A stretch of DNA of 63,413 nt, counting the filler, from Aduncisulcus paluster (lineage: Eukaryota): NCBI GenBank assembly GCA_024181965.1. It is 35 parts of 35 records of this genome, joined end to end, with 100 filler letters (N's around TTAATTAATTAA, not from the genome) between each part and the next. Parts side by side here need not be neighbours in the genome. Positions count along the whole stretch, not along the records: positions 7,806 to 8,864 come from BQXS01000548.1; 34 more parts are not named here. The stretch is one strand, 5' to 3'. Under the pieces are notes generated by a model. That model was not told where the DNA came from, searched no databases, and saw nothing but the letters and a program-made list of their open reading frames with translations. A program made the translations under genes and the position numbers. This document shows positions 2,119 to 57,665 of the stretch, in pieces (the stretch's first letter is position 1; each line of letters begins with the position of its first letter).

Positions 2119-2568
2119 TTATACCTGTTTTGTTCTGTTTGTATTCAATTCTTCGATAGTTTGGCCTTTTTGTTGAGATAATGACAATTGATGATGAAAA
2201 TAATATGCACAATACGCTATATATATCGCCTGTGCAAGAATGGTGTAGATTACAAGTCTCTCAGTGACTCCCATGAAGGGGAAGTTATTACTGATAACTA
2301 TTGGATTAGAAACACCAAAAATTGAAATCAAAATTGCAAAAACTAAAAGAATCTTAGCTTGAGGTAAATGAACTTTGCGATATCCAATTGAAAATGTGAA
2401 AGAAAACCCAATAGAAGTGAAAACAACAATAAAAGTCGTGACAAGATGCATTACATTTCCAAAAGACGATGAACTGGCTTCTTTATCAATTGGAAAAAAA
2501 GAATAACCAATAAAAGAAGCAGAATTCATGATAATATAAAGGCTACATGCAGTTTTCAAGGTGGTAGA
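2119..2568 (-). CDS. Multi-pass membrane protein, DUF998-like, 5'-partial
   Basis: Several hydrophobic helices, H in helix (HLVTT) and GVTERLVIY resembling the G-x-x-ER-L motif of DUF998. Confidence 0.4.
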   Translation of the reverse strand, partial: STTLKTACSLYIIMNSASFIGYSFFPIDKEASSSSFGNVMHLVTTFIVVFTSIGFSFTFSIGYRKVHLPQAKILLVFAILISIFGVSNPIVISNNFPFMGVTERLVIYTILAQAIYIAYCAYYFHHQLSLSQQKGQTIEELNTNRTKQV

Positions 2569-2668
2569 NNNNNNNNNNNNNNNNNNNNNNNNNNNNNNNN
2601 NNNNNNNNNNNNTTAATTAATTAANNNNNNNNNNNNNNNNNNNNNNNNNNNNNNNNNNNNNNNNNNNN
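2569..2668. other. Artificial contig-joining linker (first of 34)
   Basis: N-run + TTAATTAATTAA (stops in all six frames) + N-run, 100 nt, recurring throughout the window. Confidence 0.98.
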
Positions 2669-3716
2669 TGCTGAGAGAACGCAAGGAAGTGTCACATAAT
2701 CCAACAGAATCCAGGATCAATGTCGTCAGAGAGGGCAGGGAGGACAATGTTGTCAGGGAGGAAGATAGTGTTGTGGATAAGGGGTTGCTGCTGAGGTAGA
2801 GTTCTGTTAATGCATTCATGGAGGAGAGGGCAGAAATGTCTGAGATATTATTATTATGAAGATATAAATTTGCTAATTTCGACATCCCTGAGAGGAATGA
2901 AATATCTGAGAGAGTGTTTGAATTTAAATCTAAAGTAAGCAGCTCAAGTTTCTCAGAAAGAACAGAAATGTCTGAGATATTGTTTGTACCAAGGTACAAA
3001 ATCGACAGCTTTGACATTCTAGATAGAGCAGAGATATCAGAGATAGCGTTTGATTGTAATCTAAGGTTAGTGAGATTAGTGATGTTGACAAGAGGTGAAA
3101 CATCTGAAATACTGTTTGAATAAAGATATAGAGTCGTTAAGTTTATCATTCCTGATAGAGCAGAGATATCTGAGATGTTATTGTAATAGAGATACAGAGA
3201 TACTAAATCATCCATATTTGACAAAGAATCAATGGAAGTAATCTGATTAGATCCAAGGTGTAAATATGTCAATTCCACCAAATTTTCCAATGGACTCACA
3301 TCAGATATTTGATTGTTGTACAAATGCAAATAGGTTAGATTCACCATTCCAGATAAATCGGAAATGTCAGATATCTGATTTGAATAAAGGTATAGAATAT
3401 TCATATCATTCATTCCAGATAGAGCAGATATATTTGAAATGTTGTTTGCATGAAGAGCCAAAGTATTGATCTCAGACATCTCAGAAAGATCAGAAATATC
3501 CGAAATATTGTTACTGCCTAGATATAGAATTGACATCTTTGACATTCCAGATAGAGCAGAGATATCTGATATATTGTTATCTCGAAGGTATAGAATATTC
3601 ATATCATTCATGGAGGAGAGGGCAGAAATGTCTGAGATATTATTATTATGAAGATATAAATTTGCTAATTTCGACATCCCTGAGAGGAATGAAATATCTG
3701 AGAGAGTGTTTGAATT
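2669..3716 (-). CDS. Internalin-like 22-aa leucine-rich-repeat protein (partial)
   Basis: ~15 repeats LxxLxLxxNxISDISxLSxMx; 66-bp DNA periodicity. Confidence 0.92.
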
Positions 3717-7705: not shown

Positions 7706-8061
7706 NNNNNNNNNNNNNNNNNNNNNNNNNNNNNNNNNNNNNNNNNNNNTTAATTAATTAANNNNNNNNNNNNNNNNNNNNNNNNNNNNNNNNNNNNNNN
7801 NNNNNTATCAGAAACAATTATAATATTACTAATTATGGATTATTTATAATATTATCCTTCATCAATATGTTTACTAAGTGATTTAAAATACAACTCATTA
7901 TTAGAGCATATTATTCCTAAATTATGCAAAAAAAATATATATATACTATTTATTATACCAATAATCTTAAATTATAATATTATATTTCTCCCGTCAACCA
8001 TTCGGTGTAATTTTCACATATGCGCCCTTTTATTTTGACAACACTGCCATTATATAAAGCT

Positions 8062-8201
8062 GTTCCCCTGGGTCTGATCAACCCGGGGGAGCGTAAGTCT
8101 TATGATTTATTTGTTCATGTTCCGTTTTTGGCCCCTTGGTTGTCCCCCCCCATATCTCACTGTCATTGTCTCAAAATGGGGGGGGGACTCCAACGATTTT
8201 T
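8062..8201 (+). other. Two GC-rich hairpins plus conserved G8-ACTCCAACGATTTTT motif
   Basis: Stem 8062-8073/8081-8092; stem C8AT(8144-8153)/ATG9(8176-8186); 23-nt identity to the minus strand at 57311-57333. Confidence 0.7.
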
Positions 8202-8547
8202 ATTTTTTTGTTTGTAAATTAAGAAAAATTATAAAGTAAAAGATTTTTTATAGCGTTTAGTATATATTTTTTATCTACCGTAATACAGCAAGTATTATAC
8301 GTTGTACAATATGTTTAAACTCAGATAGGGACTGTTTTACATATATGTATTTACATATGTGAAAACAATATGTTGAACACATGTGCTACAGAAAATTTTA
8401 TTCGTTGTGACAGATCATATTCTCGGTAAAATAAATACTCTCTCATATGTTTTTATTGCTTAGATAATATTAATTTGCATTTTAATATGTAGATTTTATA
8501 CTTTGTAGGCTGATCAATATAAAATTTCAAATTTCCTTGTAAAAGAT

Positions 8548-8864
8548 ATGGCAAGAACCAAAACAAGGAAAACCAGAGCTGCAGTTGCAACCGAAGCTTG
8601 CATTCAAGCCTTTACCTCCCTCCAGGAGAAGAAACCCAAGGATTTTTGGGCGGCCCTTCACACCGTCCTCCCCGGGACAAAAGACGGGGAAATACCTCCT
8701 TCCCGTGAATCCGTGATTGCCCTGATTGGGCTTATGATCGACGATGCCCACTTTAAACACATAGTGGCCTGCAAGACCCCCCGAAAGCCCCTCCTGGCCA
8801 GACTGCTCTGCATCACAGGGAAACTTTTTCTCAGGATCGAACCCGCGGCGGGAGACTTTGTGAT
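8548..8864 (+). CDS. Divergent histone H3-like / H3-tail-mimic protein (3'-partial)
   Basis: Begins MARTKTRK; FW..L..V...E.P.S....IAL.G.MI motif shared with 49268-49822. Confidence 0.55.
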
Positions 8865-28153: not shown

Positions 28154-28546
28154 TTCAGCCAGCTTTTCATCATAGTCACTGTAAGCTCCTAATGTTCCGG
28201 CAATTATGACCTTCTTGCCCTGCTTCTGCTGATGGATCAGCCAATTAAGGAACTCGTCAGGATTATTCATCATGTCAGCGGAAAAAGAGGTGAAGACCGC
28301 CCGGTATTCTTCCATGGCTTTGTCAGAAGGCAAAGGACGCTGCGCAACATCACGCACCTCGTACAAGAAACCGAGGTAGTTAAGGGGGGCGGCAAAGCCT
28401 TCAATAAAATTATTATCCACTGCGGTGCGGTCTTCCGCTCCGTTATAGAGCACCAAGACCTTACGCTTGACCGGCTCGGCATAAGCGCAGGACAAAGCAA
28501 GGATGACAATCAAGAGTGCAACAATAAGCCTATTCAGCAACTGCAT
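28154..28546 (-). CDS. Bacterial PelA-like / polysaccharide deacetylase-associated secreted protein N-terminus
   Basis: Signal peptide, RKVLVLY, PLNYLG, GAGGTG RBS; operonic overlap with the upstream gene. Confidence 0.6.
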
Positions 28547-29486
28547 GAATAAACACCTCATTTAATGCCGGAGTGCTGACATAAGGAATAAAACCAAGAC
28601 TTCGAGAAAAATCGTAAGCTTTGCTGATTTCCTGTCTCTCTCCAGCAGGAACGTAATCAAGGGTCAATACCACCAGTTTGGGGTTGGCTTTCAAAGCGGA
28701 ATTCGCCTTGGCAATAAGAAAACTACGATCTGCTTCCGGAACATCTTTACGAGTGGAAGTTGCCAAGTCCATGGAGCTGCTCAACCCTTCAATCAACAGG
28801 TAATTGATATACGGAGCTGTCCGCCGCACAATTTCAAATCCCCTGTTCTGGCAAAGAAGCATCTTAGGAAATTTTTCCCTGATTGCACGGACCAAAGCAA
28901 CGCAAGAACGTTCAGTTCCCTTGTAGGTCTCGGGGTCGCGTCGCTGCATATCAATCGGGGAATCAAGCGTATCAAAAAAAAGCCCGTCATATCCGGCCGA
29001 AAGGACATCGGGGATAATTCGGGCAAAAAGCAATTCGCTCCATTCCGGACGGCGCACATCCACCACCCATGAATCCCAATTCTCATTATATCTTACAAGC
29101 AGATTAAGATGCCTGGCTTCCTCGTAATAAGGTCCGTTAGCCGCAACCTCACCAAGGCTGACATAAGCCAAAACCTTTACCCCTTTTGCGCGTAAAGGGG
29201 TTGGGTCCTGTCCTTCGGGATCAGAGACCAGTAGATCAAAACCGGACAGTTCATCCGTCCGGTCCTCACTTCCGTAATAACAGGCCCACGATTCGACATC
29301 ATGACTCTTGCCAAAGACGAAAGTCCTGCCGAAAAACGAAAAAGTAATCACAAGCAGCGCGACTATTGCGCAGAAACGGAAGACATTGCTTCTACCATTT
29401 CCGCAAGGGTTTCCTGCGCTACACTGTTCAGGGATTCCGTACATCCGAAAAAGCACCCCCCACTCTTGGAAGAAGATGAAGCCCAA
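28530..29486 (-). CDS. Bacterial endo-alpha-1,4-polygalactosaminidase-like glycoside hydrolase (GH114/GH166, PelA-hydrolase-like); true start probably ~29350
   Basis: LAYVSLGE, NENWDSWVVD, GYDGLFFDTLDS, QNRGFE, TLDY. Confidence 0.85.
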   Translation of the reverse strand: MGFIFFQEWGVLFRMYGIPEQCSAGNPCGNGRSNVFRFCAIVALLVITFSFFGRTFVFGKSHDVESWACYYGSEDRTDELSGFDLLVSDPEGQDPTPLRAKGVKVLAYVSLGEVAANGPYYEEARHLNLLVRYNENWDSWVVDVRRPEWSELLFARIIPDVLSAGYDGLFFDTLDSPIDMQRRDPETYKGTERSCVALVRAIREKFPKMLLCQNRGFEIVRRTAPYINYLLIEGLSSSMDLATSTRKDVPEADRSFLIAKANSALKANPKLVVLTLDYVPAGERQEISKAYDFSRSLGFIPYVSTPALNEVFIHAVAE

Positions 29487-29593
29487 AGCACATTACCGGA
29501 AGAAACATCAATCATGCGCAGGTTGATACCTACTGAAGGACTCTGGTTAACACCGCGCTTATATTGGTACTCGGTAACAGAACCATAAATAAC
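29363..29593 (-). CDS. Bacterial PelC-like lipoprotein C-terminus (missing from ORF track)
   Basis: Translated manually: VIYGSVTEYQYKRGVNQSPSVGINLRMIDVSSGNVLWASSSSKSG...ESLNSVAQ...*. Confidence 0.7.
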   Translation of the reverse strand, partial: VIYGSVTEYQYKRGVNQSPSVGINLRMIDVSSGNVLWASSSSKSGGCFFGCTESLNSVAQETLAEMVEAMSSVSAQ

Positions 29594-30673
29594 CNNNNNN
29601 NNNNNNNNNNNNNNNNNNNNNNNNNNNNNNNNNNNNNNTTAATTAATTAANNNNNNNNNNNNNNNNNNNNNNNNNNNNNNNNNNNNNNNNNNNNTAATAT
29701 TGGTATAAATAAAACACAATTAAACTATAAACCGATATTATATACTTTTGGTATATAACATCCTGCTCTTCCTAAAATAGAGCCTCTCACCCTAAGAAAG
29801 CCTTAATTATTGCGCATAACAAATATTGTTACTTTGTTCAAATTTCATTAAAATTAATATGAATTTTTGTGCAATAGTTTAATATTATTCCATCTTAATA
29901 CGGCTCATTATTGCTCTATTATTCAAGATTTTGTTGAAATAAATTAATAAATTATTTCATATATATTTTTTTTATAAAATTCTATTTTTAGGTATTTTTT
30001 TTCTTTTGACTTGGAGTTCATTAATTTTTCCAAGTTTCCAGGTATACTTTTGAATTCAACAAGATTGTCGATTTAATACGTTTTTTTATCGTAAAAACTG
30101 AAATTTTTTGGTCCCAACCTCTTCTTGGCCTTTCAAAGTATTCTTTTCCCTGCCTCACCATGAATTAATAAAAATTTTGGAACTTTCTTTTATGCAAAAA
30201 TGTTTTCTAGCAATATCATGAATAATATTGTTTTTATAGCGAAATCTGTCGAGTATTTCTCTCGATATGAAAAAAATTTCTTGTTATTCGGAAGTTTTCA
30301 TAATAAGGAACAAAATAAAAGAAAATATATTCTTTTGAATCATTTTTATAAAAGATTTGTTCAAGAAAACCTTAATAAATCGATAATATTCTCGAAACCT
30401 AAATTTTTCGAGTTTTGCTTGATTTCCCTCTGTATATGGCGTAAAAATCGATAAAAATCGTCGTATGTTTTGTAATTTTTCTCATTCTTTCGACTTATTA
30501 TCATTATATTAATATTATTTTCCTATTTCCATTTTCTGATTTTGCTTTGTGGTAGGTCAGATTCCCCATAAGTAAATTGTATCACATTACCCCTAGGAAG
30601 GTATACCACAATTTAATTAAATTGCGATAAGATACTATCTACCTTTATTTTTGCTACCTATTACTAAGCCATT

Positions 30674-49267: not shown

Positions 49268-49822
49268 CCATGAGGCACAGAGCAAGGCTAACTTAATGAT
49301 AACTTCATCTTCTGAGGGCACAGCAGTTATCACCACAAGAAGGGCAGCCAGAGTGTGGGCCCTGGAGTAGAGGCTTGGGGAGAGGTCGGCAGAGATCTCT
49401 ATCATCTCTCCGGCGAGAGCGATGAGGAGGTCAACGGAGGGGAGCTCGTAATCCTCGGCATGGGCATCAGCCACTACACCGAGGTTCCTCCAGAAGGTCG
49501 GAATATCACGGGGCCTACGGTGGAGGGCGGCGACTGCGGCTGTGGCGGCGTTACTTGCTGATATCGCAAGTGGAGCTGTGGCAACCCTTCTCTTTCCCGT
49601 TCCTTTTCCCCCGCGAGAGGAACTGGAGGAGGACCGGGAGGAACTGGAGGAGGACCGGGAGGAACTGGAGGAGGACCGGGAGGAAGAGCTGCCAGCTCCA
49701 GTGGAGGAAGTGCGGGAAACCTTGACGGCTATCTGCCTCTTCTTCGTGCCAGTGGCAGCCGCCACGGTCTTATCAGCGGTTTGTTGGCTAGTCTTTTTAC
49801 CAGTTTGTTTGGTGCGTGCCAT
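49268..49822 (-). CDS. Divergent histone H3-like protein with Ser-rich tail insertion (3'-partial)
   Basis: MARTKQTGKKTS; KRQIAVKVSRTS resembles RKQLATKAARKS; possible degenerate alpha1-L1-alpha2. Confidence 0.6.
49617..49679. repeat. 21-bp perfect tandem repeat x3 (encodes SSSSSSR)
   Basis: GAGGAACTGGAGGAGGACCGG x3. Confidence 0.95.
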
Positions 49823-50077
49823 TTTGTTACAAAATTTAAGAATTTTTATATTCTTTCTGTATTCGTTTGTCCGTACAATAAATTTAGGTAAATTATATCG
49901 TATATATATCCACTGTCTTATGAATTTATTTTATCGCCCAGTTCTTATATGGAAATTCTGATGTTGCGGGGTGTAAAATTTGAATGAATTTCTCAGAACA
50001 CCAAAGTTTTCATATGCATAAAAATCGAAATTGCAAAAATTTTGTTTTATTTAATGCTTATTATTCGTGGTAACTAT

Positions 50078-54857: not shown

Positions 54858-55435
54858 CATCCTATGTGGGACCTGAAAATATCGTGAATGATGACTGGGA
54901 AACGTCTGACGAAGTAGATATCACGGTGCGCTTACTGAAAGCAGTGCTGAATAAGTACAGCATTGATGAGAACAGGCTTTATACCACCGGGCAGTCTATG
55001 GGCGGAATGGTCTCGTTCTATCTGAATTCCAAATATACGGACCTGTTTGCCGCATCCATATTCGTCGGCAGCCAGTGGGACATCAATGTCCTCGCGCCCC
55101 TTGCCAACGATAAATTCTTTTATATTGTCTCGGCTGGTGACCCCAAGGCCTCCGGCGGTATGCGTGAACTGGGTGCTCTCTTGAAGAAGAAAGGAGTATC
55201 TTATGGCGAGACCGAATTTTCCGCCAAACTCCCGCAAAATGAACAGGAAAAGCTCATCCATGACCTTCTACGCCAAGGGCACCGTATCAATTTTGTTCAG
55301 TTCTCCAAGAATACGGTTATCCCTGAAGGCACCCATGATCGCGGCGGGGAACATCTTTATTCTTTCGATTACGCATATCAGCTCAAAGCCGTAAGGGACT
55401 GGCTCTTCCAAAAAAAAAGGAATACGCGCCAATGA
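54858..55435 (+). CDS. Bacterial alpha/beta hydrolase (predicted peptidase/esterase) C-terminus
   Basis: IDENRLYTTGQSMGG nucleophile elbow; H..F..AY...VRDWLF. Confidence 0.85.
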
Positions 55436-55505
55436 CCTTTTTGAGAAAGGCTCGTCAGCCAAGGATGACAAATCAGCCTTCACCTTTTATCTGCAATCCG
55501 CTCAA

Positions 55506-55911
55506 TTGGGATATGGTCCTGCTCAGGATAAGGTTGGATACGCATATCAGCACGGAAAAGGAGTGGCTAGAGACATCAAGGAGGCGGTCAAATGGTACCG
55601 GAAAGCGCTGGAACGTGGGGTTGAACGATCCCGTTTGAACCTTGGAATAATTTATCTAACTAGCGAAGGGATTATGAAAAATTACGAGAATGCCCTGAAA
55701 TTATTTACACAGTCATGTCAGCATGGTGACATGAAGGCCCCCCGATATCTTGGAATCATGTACGAAGATGGTTTGGGAGTTAAAATGGATTATGCCAAGG
55801 CCTATGAATATTACAAAGCTGCTTCCGATGCCGGAGATATAACCGCTGCCGCTAGACTTGGATACTTGTGTGAGAGAGGGCTGGGTGTGGAACAAAGCTA
55901 TTCAGAAGCAT
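55506..55911 (+). CDS. Bacterial Sel1-repeat protein (partial)
   Basis: AQ..VGYAYQHGKGVARD..EAVKWY, LGIMYEDGLGV repeats. Confidence 0.88.
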
Positions 55912-56011: not shown

Positions 56012-56965
56012 TTCTTCCTTCACAGAAGCTCTTCGGGCTTTTCCAGGTTTCTTCCCTTCAGTAGCCTGAGGGGTGGAGTGTTTCTCCGGGGTAGCCGTCT
56101 TCTTGTCATCCGGCACCTCTGTCGTCCTCTCGGAGACTTCTCCCATGGCTTTGATGTCCTCAGCCGTTTGCTCAGCTGCCTTTTGGGCAACTTCCTCAGC
56201 CATCTTCTTCTTCAGAGCTTCTAGCTCTGTGGCTTGAGCCTTGAGAGCTTCAACTTCCTCGTCAGTCAGCTTGTGAGACCGAGGTGACTCTGAGAAGTCT
56301 TCTGGAGCCTCTTCGAACGATACCAGTTCGAGCATCTCGGCTTCCGCAGCGCTCTCTGATCTCCTCTTGGGATCTTCTGACTTCTGGGAAGGCTGTTTGT
56401 CTTCCCCCTCCTCAGGAGTCTTTTCAGACCCTCCATCTTGACCAGAGCTCTCTGAGCCCTCTTCATCTGACCTTCCAGGTGTCCTGGATGGATTCATTCT
56501 GGCTTTCCTCTGGGCAGCCCGACTTCCAATCGTTGACGTCTTCGTCTTCGATTTCTTCGCAGGACAGGCCATGTATACATGGCTTTTATCGACAGCTAAA
56601 GCTGTTTCGCCAGGTTCTGTTGAACCTGGGAGACCTGGTGACACATTCCCCTTCCGGGTGATGTCATGAACCAGATCTCCTCTGATGGCTTTACCTGTGC
56701 CCCCAACCTCCGTGGAGGAAGGGATGAGCACAGCACCACCAGATGGGTTAGCTTGCCGAAGGGTTCTGACCCCGGATACTGAGCTATCTTCAACGAGATG
56801 ACTCATTGTCAAATCCAGGGGAGTCTTTGACTTCCTTTTATCAGTTAACATGATAAACTTTTGTTTATCTCTGGAATCCCTTTGGGATTCGCTCGTGCCT
56901 AGAGGTTTTCCTCTTTCGGCCATCAAATCAAAAGTAAGACTATTATCACGTACAGTAAAATGCAT
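56012..56965 (-). CDS. Orphan charged low-complexity protein (3'-partial)
   Basis: AAAATG start, >300 aa open frame. Confidence 0.6.
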
Positions 56966-57310
56966 TTTGTGGTAGTACTTGCAATATAAAATAATAAAAT
57001 CTTTACAACGGATCGTAACGGTTCCACAATTTATTAAATATCTGATCGGGCGGTAATCAACCGGTACCGCCTGTGCCCAGCCGCCGCCAACATTAAAAAC
57101 TATATTTTACAACTTAAAATTAAAAATACGTTTTAATGGGTATCTAATAAATTTTATTGTCTTATTTTCTTAAATTTAATGTTGAAATGCTATTTAATGC
57201 ATTCTACGAGCAGGAAAAAGAAAAATAAAATGACTGAAACAGATTTGCCTTTATTTTACTATAAAAATTTCTTAAATAATGAAAAATGAAAAATAAAAAC
57301 AAAAAAAATG

Positions 57311-57370
57311 AAAAATCGTTGGAGTCCCCCCCCTTTTTTACATTGTAAGACAGATTAAGGGGGGGGTGTG
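57311..57370 (-). other. Second copy of the C8/G8 hairpin + ACTCCAACGATTTTT motif
   Basis: Minus strand C8TT-21nt-AAG8ACTCCAACGATTTTT. Confidence 0.75.
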
Positions 57371-57665
57371 GCGATCTCTATGGAGAAGATGCAGACAAAT
57401 TTACTCAATAAAATCTAGGCTACCACATCCTCCTCTTTCTGAAGGCGATGGGCAGAGACTTTTTCAAGCGTGAAAAATAATTACTTGTGGGATCTGGTTA
57501 GCGCAATAAGATGGCTCTAGTGGAAAACCCATAGGAAAGAATAGAATAAGAAAACCTACAAACCNNNNNNNNNNNNNNNNNNNNNNNNNNNNNNNNNNNN
57601 NNNNNNNNTTAATTAATTAANNNNNNNNNNNNNNNNNNNNNNNNNNNNNNNNNNNNNNNNNNNNC

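Follow-up and report, generated by a model that had tools for sequence, protein, structure and literature searches.

A hairpin module with a self-complementary loop in the left ends of CMCT transposons of Aduncisulcus paluster, a candidate transposon-borne RNA gene

The DNA considered here (the window; 63,413 nucleotides from Aduncisulcus paluster) is made up of 37 short contigs with N spacers between them, taken from a fragmented assembly (29.6 Mb in 23,235 contigs) in which chimeric joins are possible. A C-run/G-run hairpin occurs in it twice and, because the window is contigs joined by spacers, the two copies lie on different contigs. Copy 1 (plus strand) reads C8 (8144–8151), AT, 22 nt, AT, G9 (8178–8186) and the tail ACTCCAACGATTTTT up to 8201; copy 2 (minus strand) reads C8 (57366–57359), TT, 21 nt, AA, G8 (57333–57326) and the tail ACTCCAACGATTTTT up to 57311. 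These letters and coordinates, given in a first-pass annotation of the window, were all correct on re-reading, and the 23-nt identity that it reported between the copies is borne out (two matches to the 23-mer in the window versus 0.00 expected from 100 shuffles). The genome search that it called for, carried out with a 20-mer of the G-run motif at up to two mismatches, returned 39 matches versus 0 for the reversed control, far more than chance would give.

A further 12-bp hairpin with two G-U pairs, which the annotation placed upstream of copy 1 and treated as an extra, is real on refolding and is the best-conserved and most informative part of the locus rather than a secondary one; 64 copies were tallied in the genome. 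It is called hairpin 1 below, and the C-run/G-run element hairpin 2 (Table 1); L-numbers (L001, L013 and so on) label individual genome loci extracted for comparison. A supposed weaker counterpart at 57422–57456 does fold (−15.5 kcal, z −3.2) but is not a homologue of hairpin 1, whose model matches the window at 8054–8104 only; copy 2 lacks hairpin 1. The compensatory change claimed for the inner closure of hairpin 2 (AT/AT versus TT/AA) holds in part, the first inner pair being kept in 14 of 17 distinct variants and the second in 11 of 17, while the pair immediately outside the C and G runs covaries better (T-A in 7 of the 17, A-T in 7, broken in 3).

Table 1. Features of the two copies and of their surroundings, in window coordinates
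Feature	Position	Strand	Remarks
Left end of a CMCT (EnSpm/RAG-like) DNA transposon	7806–8409	−	L001 and L013 shared to 8409, then diverging; contig ends at 7806
Upstream motifs (TGCG-like, TTTG-N-CAAC-like), candidate promoter of an outward transcript	8021–8043	+	12 subfamilies lined up on hairpin 1 by eye, no statistics
Hairpin 1, 12–13 bp stem with U-G wobbles	8062–8092	+	Most conserved part of the module
Self-complementary loop hexamer TGATCA (elsewhere TGGCCA, TGCGCA, TAGCTA)	8075–8080	+	Candidate kissing-loop site
GTAAG-N-CTTA, second small palindrome, 5' splice site-like	8093–8102	+	Absent in the TGCGCA subfamily
Hairpin 2: C-run/G-run stem, large loop, then CCAACGA and T-run	8138–8201	+	Element of the first-pass annotation
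T-rich tract, TTAAG (8219–8223), AGTAAA (8235–8240)	8196–8240	+	Candidate transcript 3' end
H3-tail-like ORF	8548–8864	+	Flank, outside the element
Different repeat starting TGTTGGCGGCGG, carrying the orphan ORF at 56965	56012–57092	−	Interrupts the transposon end; outside the element
Truncated copy 2: hairpin 2 (57366–57311), T tract, TTAAG, AGTAAA, part of the subterminal region	57093–57366	−	Terminus and hairpin 1 lost
Foreign sequence before the C-run, including the non-homologous hairpin 57422–57456	57367–57456	−	57367–57418 identical to extra-terminus flank in L039

Element boundaries and downstream genes

The distances of 362 and 361 nt from the G-run ends to the ATGs at 8548 and 56965 had been measured correctly. 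The fixed spacing to cargo genes that was read into them is a coincidence, because both downstream genes lie beyond the element boundaries; the distances break up as 223+139 (copy 1) and 234+127 (copy 2). Related copies are identical downstream to a sharp end, followed by unrelated flanks, and the sharp ends, read inward, start with CACA(A/G)CG, CACAG(G/C) or TA-CAT(G/A)G. The terminus of copy 1 at 8409, read on the minus strand, is CACAACGAA, and the L013 contig carries the same transposon end beside another flank. Of the other copies of the H3-like gene, three have a located start and enough sequence ahead of it, and all three are free of the transposon at that point; since such empty-site copies exist, the gene is flank and not cargo. 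It belongs to a repeat gene present in many copies (11 matches over 9 contigs, 74–100% identity), for which Pfam shows no histone fold. Another ORF, which opens with MARTKQT (49268–49930, minus strand), is similar to it by eye in its C-terminal part, and the two H3-tail-like ORFs are possibly histone-tail mimics of another mobile element.

Across 274 bp, copy 2 shares 99.6% identity with nine listed loci from the commonest subfamily, and the repeat that begins at 57092 is seen in six different left contexts. This repeat (57092–56012, minus strand) has a sharp, LTR-like TG start and is also present at L036, L037, L045, L046 and L106, often in or beside other transposons.

Module anatomy and the loop palindrome of hairpin 1

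Read on the plus strand, the module consists of the upstream motifs, hairpin 1, GTAAG-N-CTTA, a variable linker rich in U, hairpin 2, a T tract of 25–45 nt, TTAAG and AGTRAA. Hairpin 1 is the constant element across subfamilies, while hairpin 2 takes three main forms (a C/G-run stem, a different GC stem and a 14-bp palindrome) and is replaced in two subfamilies. In L040/L010 (1050–1106) the 5' arm of hairpin 2 is now a perfect 16-nt complement of the 3' arm, and this conversion in L010 is likely a template-switch event. At the 3' side, all 38 distinct ends have TTAAG, and 33 of them have AGTRAA (3.6 expected from shuffles). According to the accessible text of two articles, AGURAA is the poly(A) signal of Giardia (PMC9014877) and WGURAA has so far been found only in that genus (PMC11529991). 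Within A. paluster, AGTRAA occurs in 5 of 33 3' flanks of long ORFs versus 2 of 33 reversed flanks, and is not clearly the host's poly(A) signal.

The loop of hairpin 1 is laid out as two bases, a hexamer and an A; the HIV-1 DIS loop has a 2+6+1 layout. Of the 64 copies, 63 have a perfectly palindromic hexamer (TGATCA in 33, TGCGCA in 13, TGGCCA in 12 and TAGCTA in 5), and the remaining copy, GCGCGA, still has a palindromic inner tetramer. When the letters and the length of the loop were left free, 36 of 37 loci had perfect palindromes, with identical spacing in all. By comparison, a palindromic loop was found in 0 of 14 same-stem matches from metagenomes and in 0 of 28 other GC-rich hairpins of the extracted loci. 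In every aligned row except one, a pyrimidine stands directly 5' of the hexamer; the 3' A is kept.

Across 20 distinct rows, 98.3% of cells pair and three are unpaired. Both sides have changed in 15 cells, all of them Watson-Crick and all in the two inner loop pairs, a result reached by 0 of 500 shuffles, which ignore the relatedness of the copies and let related copies inflate it; because only five loop types exist, the cells amount to about four independent double changes. In the stem, 5 of the 9 pairs vary, by way of U-G on the plus strand (20 cells, each C-A on the minus strand), and none of the 9 shows changes on both sides in the 20 rows. The innermost loop pair cannot close within one hairpin and yet covaries, and its pairing must therefore be sought either between two molecules or in a DNA dyad.

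Computed stabilities favour the plus strand of hairpin 1 over the minus strand in nine of nine variants. Extended dimers are 10–14 kcal more stable than two monomers, also in nine of nine, as would to some extent hold for any hairpin. For UGAUCA, the commonest loop, with its four A-U pairs, the duplex is predicted to be weak (−5.0 kcal). Over the whole region of ~150 nt the plus strand is not consistently favoured, the minus strand having the lower energy in four of the nine variants. A U1-like reading on the minus strand was tried and failed, the loop and the downstream sequence not being conserved.

Carrier transposons and distribution of the module

Both ends were found at four loci, L036 (4.4 kb), L037 (4.2 kb), L045 (0.8 kb, non-autonomous) and L081 (3.5 kb), all of which have 5'-CA..TG-3' terminal inverted repeats (CACA in L045, L037 and L036; CATGG inside TA in L081). 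Target duplications, which in CMCT elements are expected to measure 2–5 bp, are present in three of the four (AT in L045, TT in L037 and TA in L081) and absent from L036; a fifth end pair, L043, has no matching duplication and may be two copies. TA stands on both sides of L081 and before the listed single CATGG/CATAG ends, where the search pattern had required it.

The CACA-ended elements encode an ORF of ~200 aa and a protein of ~900 aa. Alignments of the larger protein give the motifs FMDG, IIxDGK, CPWC, HxGDxLH and AExGERxN, in other words a DDE arrangement that has C(2)C and H(3-4)H after the second D and before the E, by which CMCT transposases are recognized. The best fold match to its predicted model (pLDDT 66) is RAG1 (E 7e-6), and 11 of 20 scanned distant relatives carry Transposase_21, DUF1258 or Plavaka, which are EnSpm/Plavaka Pfam families; a protein search for close relatives outside this genome gave none, only weak EnSpm/Plavaka-type matches. 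The smaller ORF has no Pfam family over the cut-off, only sub-threshold Atlas matches and a model of low quality (pLDDT 42). In the CATGG-ended elements a second transposase is encoded, whose motifs come in the same order and which is only 16% identical to the first (profile comparison, E 6e-4).

The available portion of one article describes the CMCT clade (EnSpm/CACTA, Plavaka, ESTA and Transib) as having CA..TG termini, a 2-bp or TA duplication, D-D-C(2)C-H(3-4)H-E transposases with a RAG1-like predicted fold, and TET/JBP cargo genes that have passed between its lineages (PMC12730594). As far as that portion goes, the A. paluster elements match in termini, duplications and transposase motifs, and their cargo appears to move between lineages as the TET/JBP genes do, but here the cargo is an RNA-like non-coding module. 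Judged by their motifs, both transposases fit the clade, and the CATGG-ended elements resemble the ESTA lineage in their TA sites; TA-targeting CMCT elements are thereby delimited in a fornicate.

TA-flanked elements with CATGG/CATAG ends and the RAG-like motif set include L081 (2129–5587), with single ends at L143 and L147–L151. Ends of this type often abut the starts of hAT-like (DUF659-type) ORFs (L040 at 1404, L081 at 5587 and L143 at 2989), perhaps through a target preference or because they form a composite element. A hAT origin of the TACATGG-ended elements, suspected from these adjacent ORFs, was dropped because L081 has both ends around a CMCT-type transposase.

The module, of ~250 bp, lies in the left ends of the transposons, 220–510 bp inside the CA..TG termini and ~150–350 bp upstream of the first ORF. 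At L036, L037, L039, L073, L081 and L109 it is upstream of the transposase, on the opposite strand, and faces the terminus. Of 48 testable contexts, 40 (28 CACA-type and 12 CATRG-type) have a terminus at 240–640 nt downstream, versus 13% of random stretches, in a test whose pattern was derived from the same loci and which left out 15 contexts that were too short; the eight misses are mostly truncated or rearranged copies. The module is common to the two transposase lineages that are only 16% identical. Between L036 (CACA ends) and L081 (CATGG ends) the sole DNA match is 76 bp (80%) at hairpin 1, and the match of L036 to the TGCGCA subfamily is limited to 31 bp of hairpin 1. A 358-bp version is, in turn, 92% identical between one CACA-ended and one CATGG-ended element, which points to exchange of the module between lineages, assembly chimeras being possible.

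A diverged copy of 265 bp (L075, 4050–4305, minus strand; 71% identical) contains an extra inserted hairpin and is without a transposon terminus, and marks the module as a unit of ~265 bp. Its neighbours are the 3' end of a dynein heavy chain gene and a 90-bp repeat on one side and a gene without a Pfam match on the other; it could be a relic, a domesticated copy or the source gene. In L105, a CMCT element without the module, the slot is filled by a SET-domain gene of the same orientation, consistent with a slot for regulatory cargo. The same locus contains a long inverted repeat (2150–2230) and an intact SET gene (2467–3531), and in L085 a fragment of the module directly abuts a fragment of SET.

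The hairpin-1 model was run on 38 loci and the window and then on 20 and 17 further loci, and may miss very diverged copies. With this model the module is absent from 20 further transposase loci, most of which are without a left end. Searches outside the genome gave 0 matches in viral contigs and 14 in metagenome contigs, taken as chance, and the module is known from one genome only. An independent insert of SINE or Helitron type was rejected, given the constant position of 40 of the 48 testable copies in CMCT ends and the lack of a tRNA in 15 loci, and failed also because left boundaries vary among subfamilies. A Helitron/Helentron end was likewise considered and dropped, the module not having ends of its own.

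Possible nature of the module

The best reading is that the module may be a transposon-borne small RNA gene whose product homodimerizes, to which we give a probability of roughly 0.52. The CMCT left end would then have a gene for a small non-coding RNA as its cargo, and an AT-rich promoter region would fire both ways, giving the transposase mRNA inward and an RNA of ~200 nt outward. The outward RNA would comprise hairpin 1, the U-rich linker, hairpin 2 and the U tract, and would end after the AGURAA-like signal. Two such RNAs could pair loop to loop through the palindrome, and might relax to an extended duplex of 30–38 bp. In favour of this reading stand the place of the module in two distant transposase lineages, the strand-specific wobbles, the loop palindrome maintained by double changes and the conserved 3' motifs. 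Against it count T runs of 4–6 within the linker, which would stop Pol III early, the weak duplex of the commonest loop, the lack of both-side changes in the stem, the mixed strand preference of the whole region, the variability of hairpin 2, the doubtful standing of AGTRAA as a poly(A) signal and the sister elements that lack the module. Of what the first-pass annotation had concluded about the element, a repeated, covarying part of a mobile element stands, and a structured RNA is probable.

Contigs from one presumed-RNA run, possibly of the same sample, compared with L031, cover the module (92–258 and 229–413); they carry no strand, ends or level and weigh on neither side. On the same locus the run gives one joint that matches a GT..AG intron, and no joint at GTAAG is among those listed. 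Rfam returned nine weak matches for 12 loci, all below gathering, and eight in a further scan, again all below.

Several known RNA systems invite comparison. Coronavirus s2m is mobile and is shared by unrelated genomes. In the accessible text of one article, s2m is a hairpin with a palindromic loop that is reported to form kissing and extended dimers (PMC12291111), and to that extent the module is like it in being a small hairpin with a palindromic loop that is present in unrelated elements. It differs in its DNA-transposon setting, in having a hexamer and not a tetramer, and in giving no Rfam match to s2m. The IS10 RNA-OUT is a small hairpin RNA that is directed outward at the transposase end and underlies multicopy inhibition; its partner is the transposase mRNA, so that no palindrome is required, whereas the module lies upstream of the first ORF by the distance given above and has a palindromic loop. 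The omega-RNA of Fanzor/TnpB is a structured RNA transcribed toward the transposon end, which follows the nuclease gene and ends flush with the element. The module, in contrast, stops short of the terminus (by 220–510 bp) and adjoins no nuclease gene, and a reading as omega-RNA was rejected when 0 of 17 Fanzor-type loci were found to carry it.

The layout of the module is that of retroviral dimerization sites. Available passages of one article place a 6-nt palindrome in the apical loops of HIV-1 SL1 and ASLV L3, adjoining the splice donor, and describe selection at the HIV-1 DIS as favouring central G-C pairs and flanking purines (PMC5874298). As far as these passages and those on Ty1 PAL extend, the module resembles the retroviral DIS and Ty1 PAL in its apical-loop hexamer, the occurrence of several alternative palindromes, a possible conversion to an extended duplex, and a donor-like sequence just downstream (PMC5874298, PMC6844567). 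It departs from both in being carried by a DNA transposon and facing outward, with no LTR, primer site or Gag seen. From the retroviral DIS it differs further in that its commonest palindrome (33 of 64 loops) is AU-rich with a central A-U, in 5' flanks that are mostly pyrimidine and not the conserved purines, and in lying opposite to the transposase rather than in the leader of a packaged genomic RNA. A self-pairing RNA loop is unexpected in DNA transposons because there is no RNA genome to package.

Within the open-access literature, as represented by titles, the starts of abstracts and some passages, no description of such an element in DNA transposons was found, and an RNA-like cargo with a retrovirus-style loop in transposons of a known kind appears undescribed. 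There is a fair chance that the module represents a new RNA class. That it typifies an undescribed class of transposon-encoded non-coding RNA, namely a small outward RNA of eukaryotic cut-and-paste transposons that homodimerizes by a retrovirus-style kissing loop, we put forward tentatively. If such a class were real, subfamilies would fall into pairing groups according to their loop sequence, and the elements could use RNA-RNA recognition for copy counting, mutual pairing or the blunting of host RNA silencing. The role is more speculative still: since concentration and loop sequence both govern pairing, the likeliest candidate, by analogy with IS10 RNA-OUT and adenovirus VA RNA, would be a copy-number-sensitive, subfamily-specific regulator or a double-stranded decoy of host RNA silencing, a proposal that we hold to be doubtful. 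Were the RNA and its dimer real, they would add a new RNA-based layer of control or counter-defence to the EnSpm/RAG family, with the four alternative natural palindromes as ready-made specificity controls.

The module could instead act as DNA, in the form of a one-strand hairpin or cruciform (arising, for example, during replication or transcription) or of a dyad for a dimeric protein, and so aid the promoter or the pairing of ends. This is unlikely on balance, although it would account for the fixed place between the subterminal repeats and the first gene, and for a hairpin that is near-palindromic as DNA, where G-T pairs are possible in single strands. Four different hexamers could not be read by one protein, and the loops differ on near-identical ends (TGGCCA/TAGCTA on one end type, TGGCCA/TGATCA on another); the covariation of an innermost pair that is unable to close in one hairpin also weighs against it. 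RAG-like transposases are not known to have a single-stranded phase, which we count against it as well.

We give a rather lower chance to a passenger without a function for the transposon, either a host small RNA gene captured once and spread by recombination of ends or an unselected palindrome refreshed by fold-back copying. The terminus-free copy of L075, the template-switch conversion of hairpin 2 in L010 and the 92% identity of the 358-bp version across CACA- and CATGG-ended elements would all suit it. Fold-back correction, however, would be expected to erase both the G-T wobbles and the off-centre position of the loop, and these are kept in all five loop types. The module also outlasts all other DNA shared between lineages and matches no Rfam family, and the 90-bp repeat that precedes the L075 copy gives that locus a patchwork look and not that of a clean host locus.

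Splicing offers a third alternative, in which hairpin 1 would be a short first exon or spliced leader with GTAAG as donor and the T tract with TTAAG as 3' splice site. GTRAG does follow hairpin 1 in most subfamilies, the T tract and TTAAG close all 38 of the 3' ends, and the sole host intron seen is T-rich (GTATGT..TTTAG). Against this, the TGCGCA subfamily has no GTAAG, the bases there lengthening the stem instead; TAAG does not conform to YAG; two subfamilies have CCAGG where the CCAAC 'branch' would be; and the loop palindrome would be left unexplained, which together make a splicing cassette improbable.

Almost no weight is left for the proposal of the first-pass annotation that the hairpin is a terminus or origin belonging to some unrecognised virus or cargo-carrying element, at a fixed spacing from a cargo gene, which the placement of two copies 361–362 nt before ATGs had suggested, as the module sits well inside the CMCT termini, the true termini fall between hairpin and genes, what other copies face is a host gene, a piece of a retrotransposon or nothing, the viral contigs held no match, and the empty-site copies of the H3-like gene refute it.

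Elsewhere in the window, a glycoside-hydrolase-like ORF (28154–29594) and an esterase-like ORF beside a Sel1-repeat ORF (54858–55911) look bacterial by eye, and the contigs that carry them are possibly assembly contamination.
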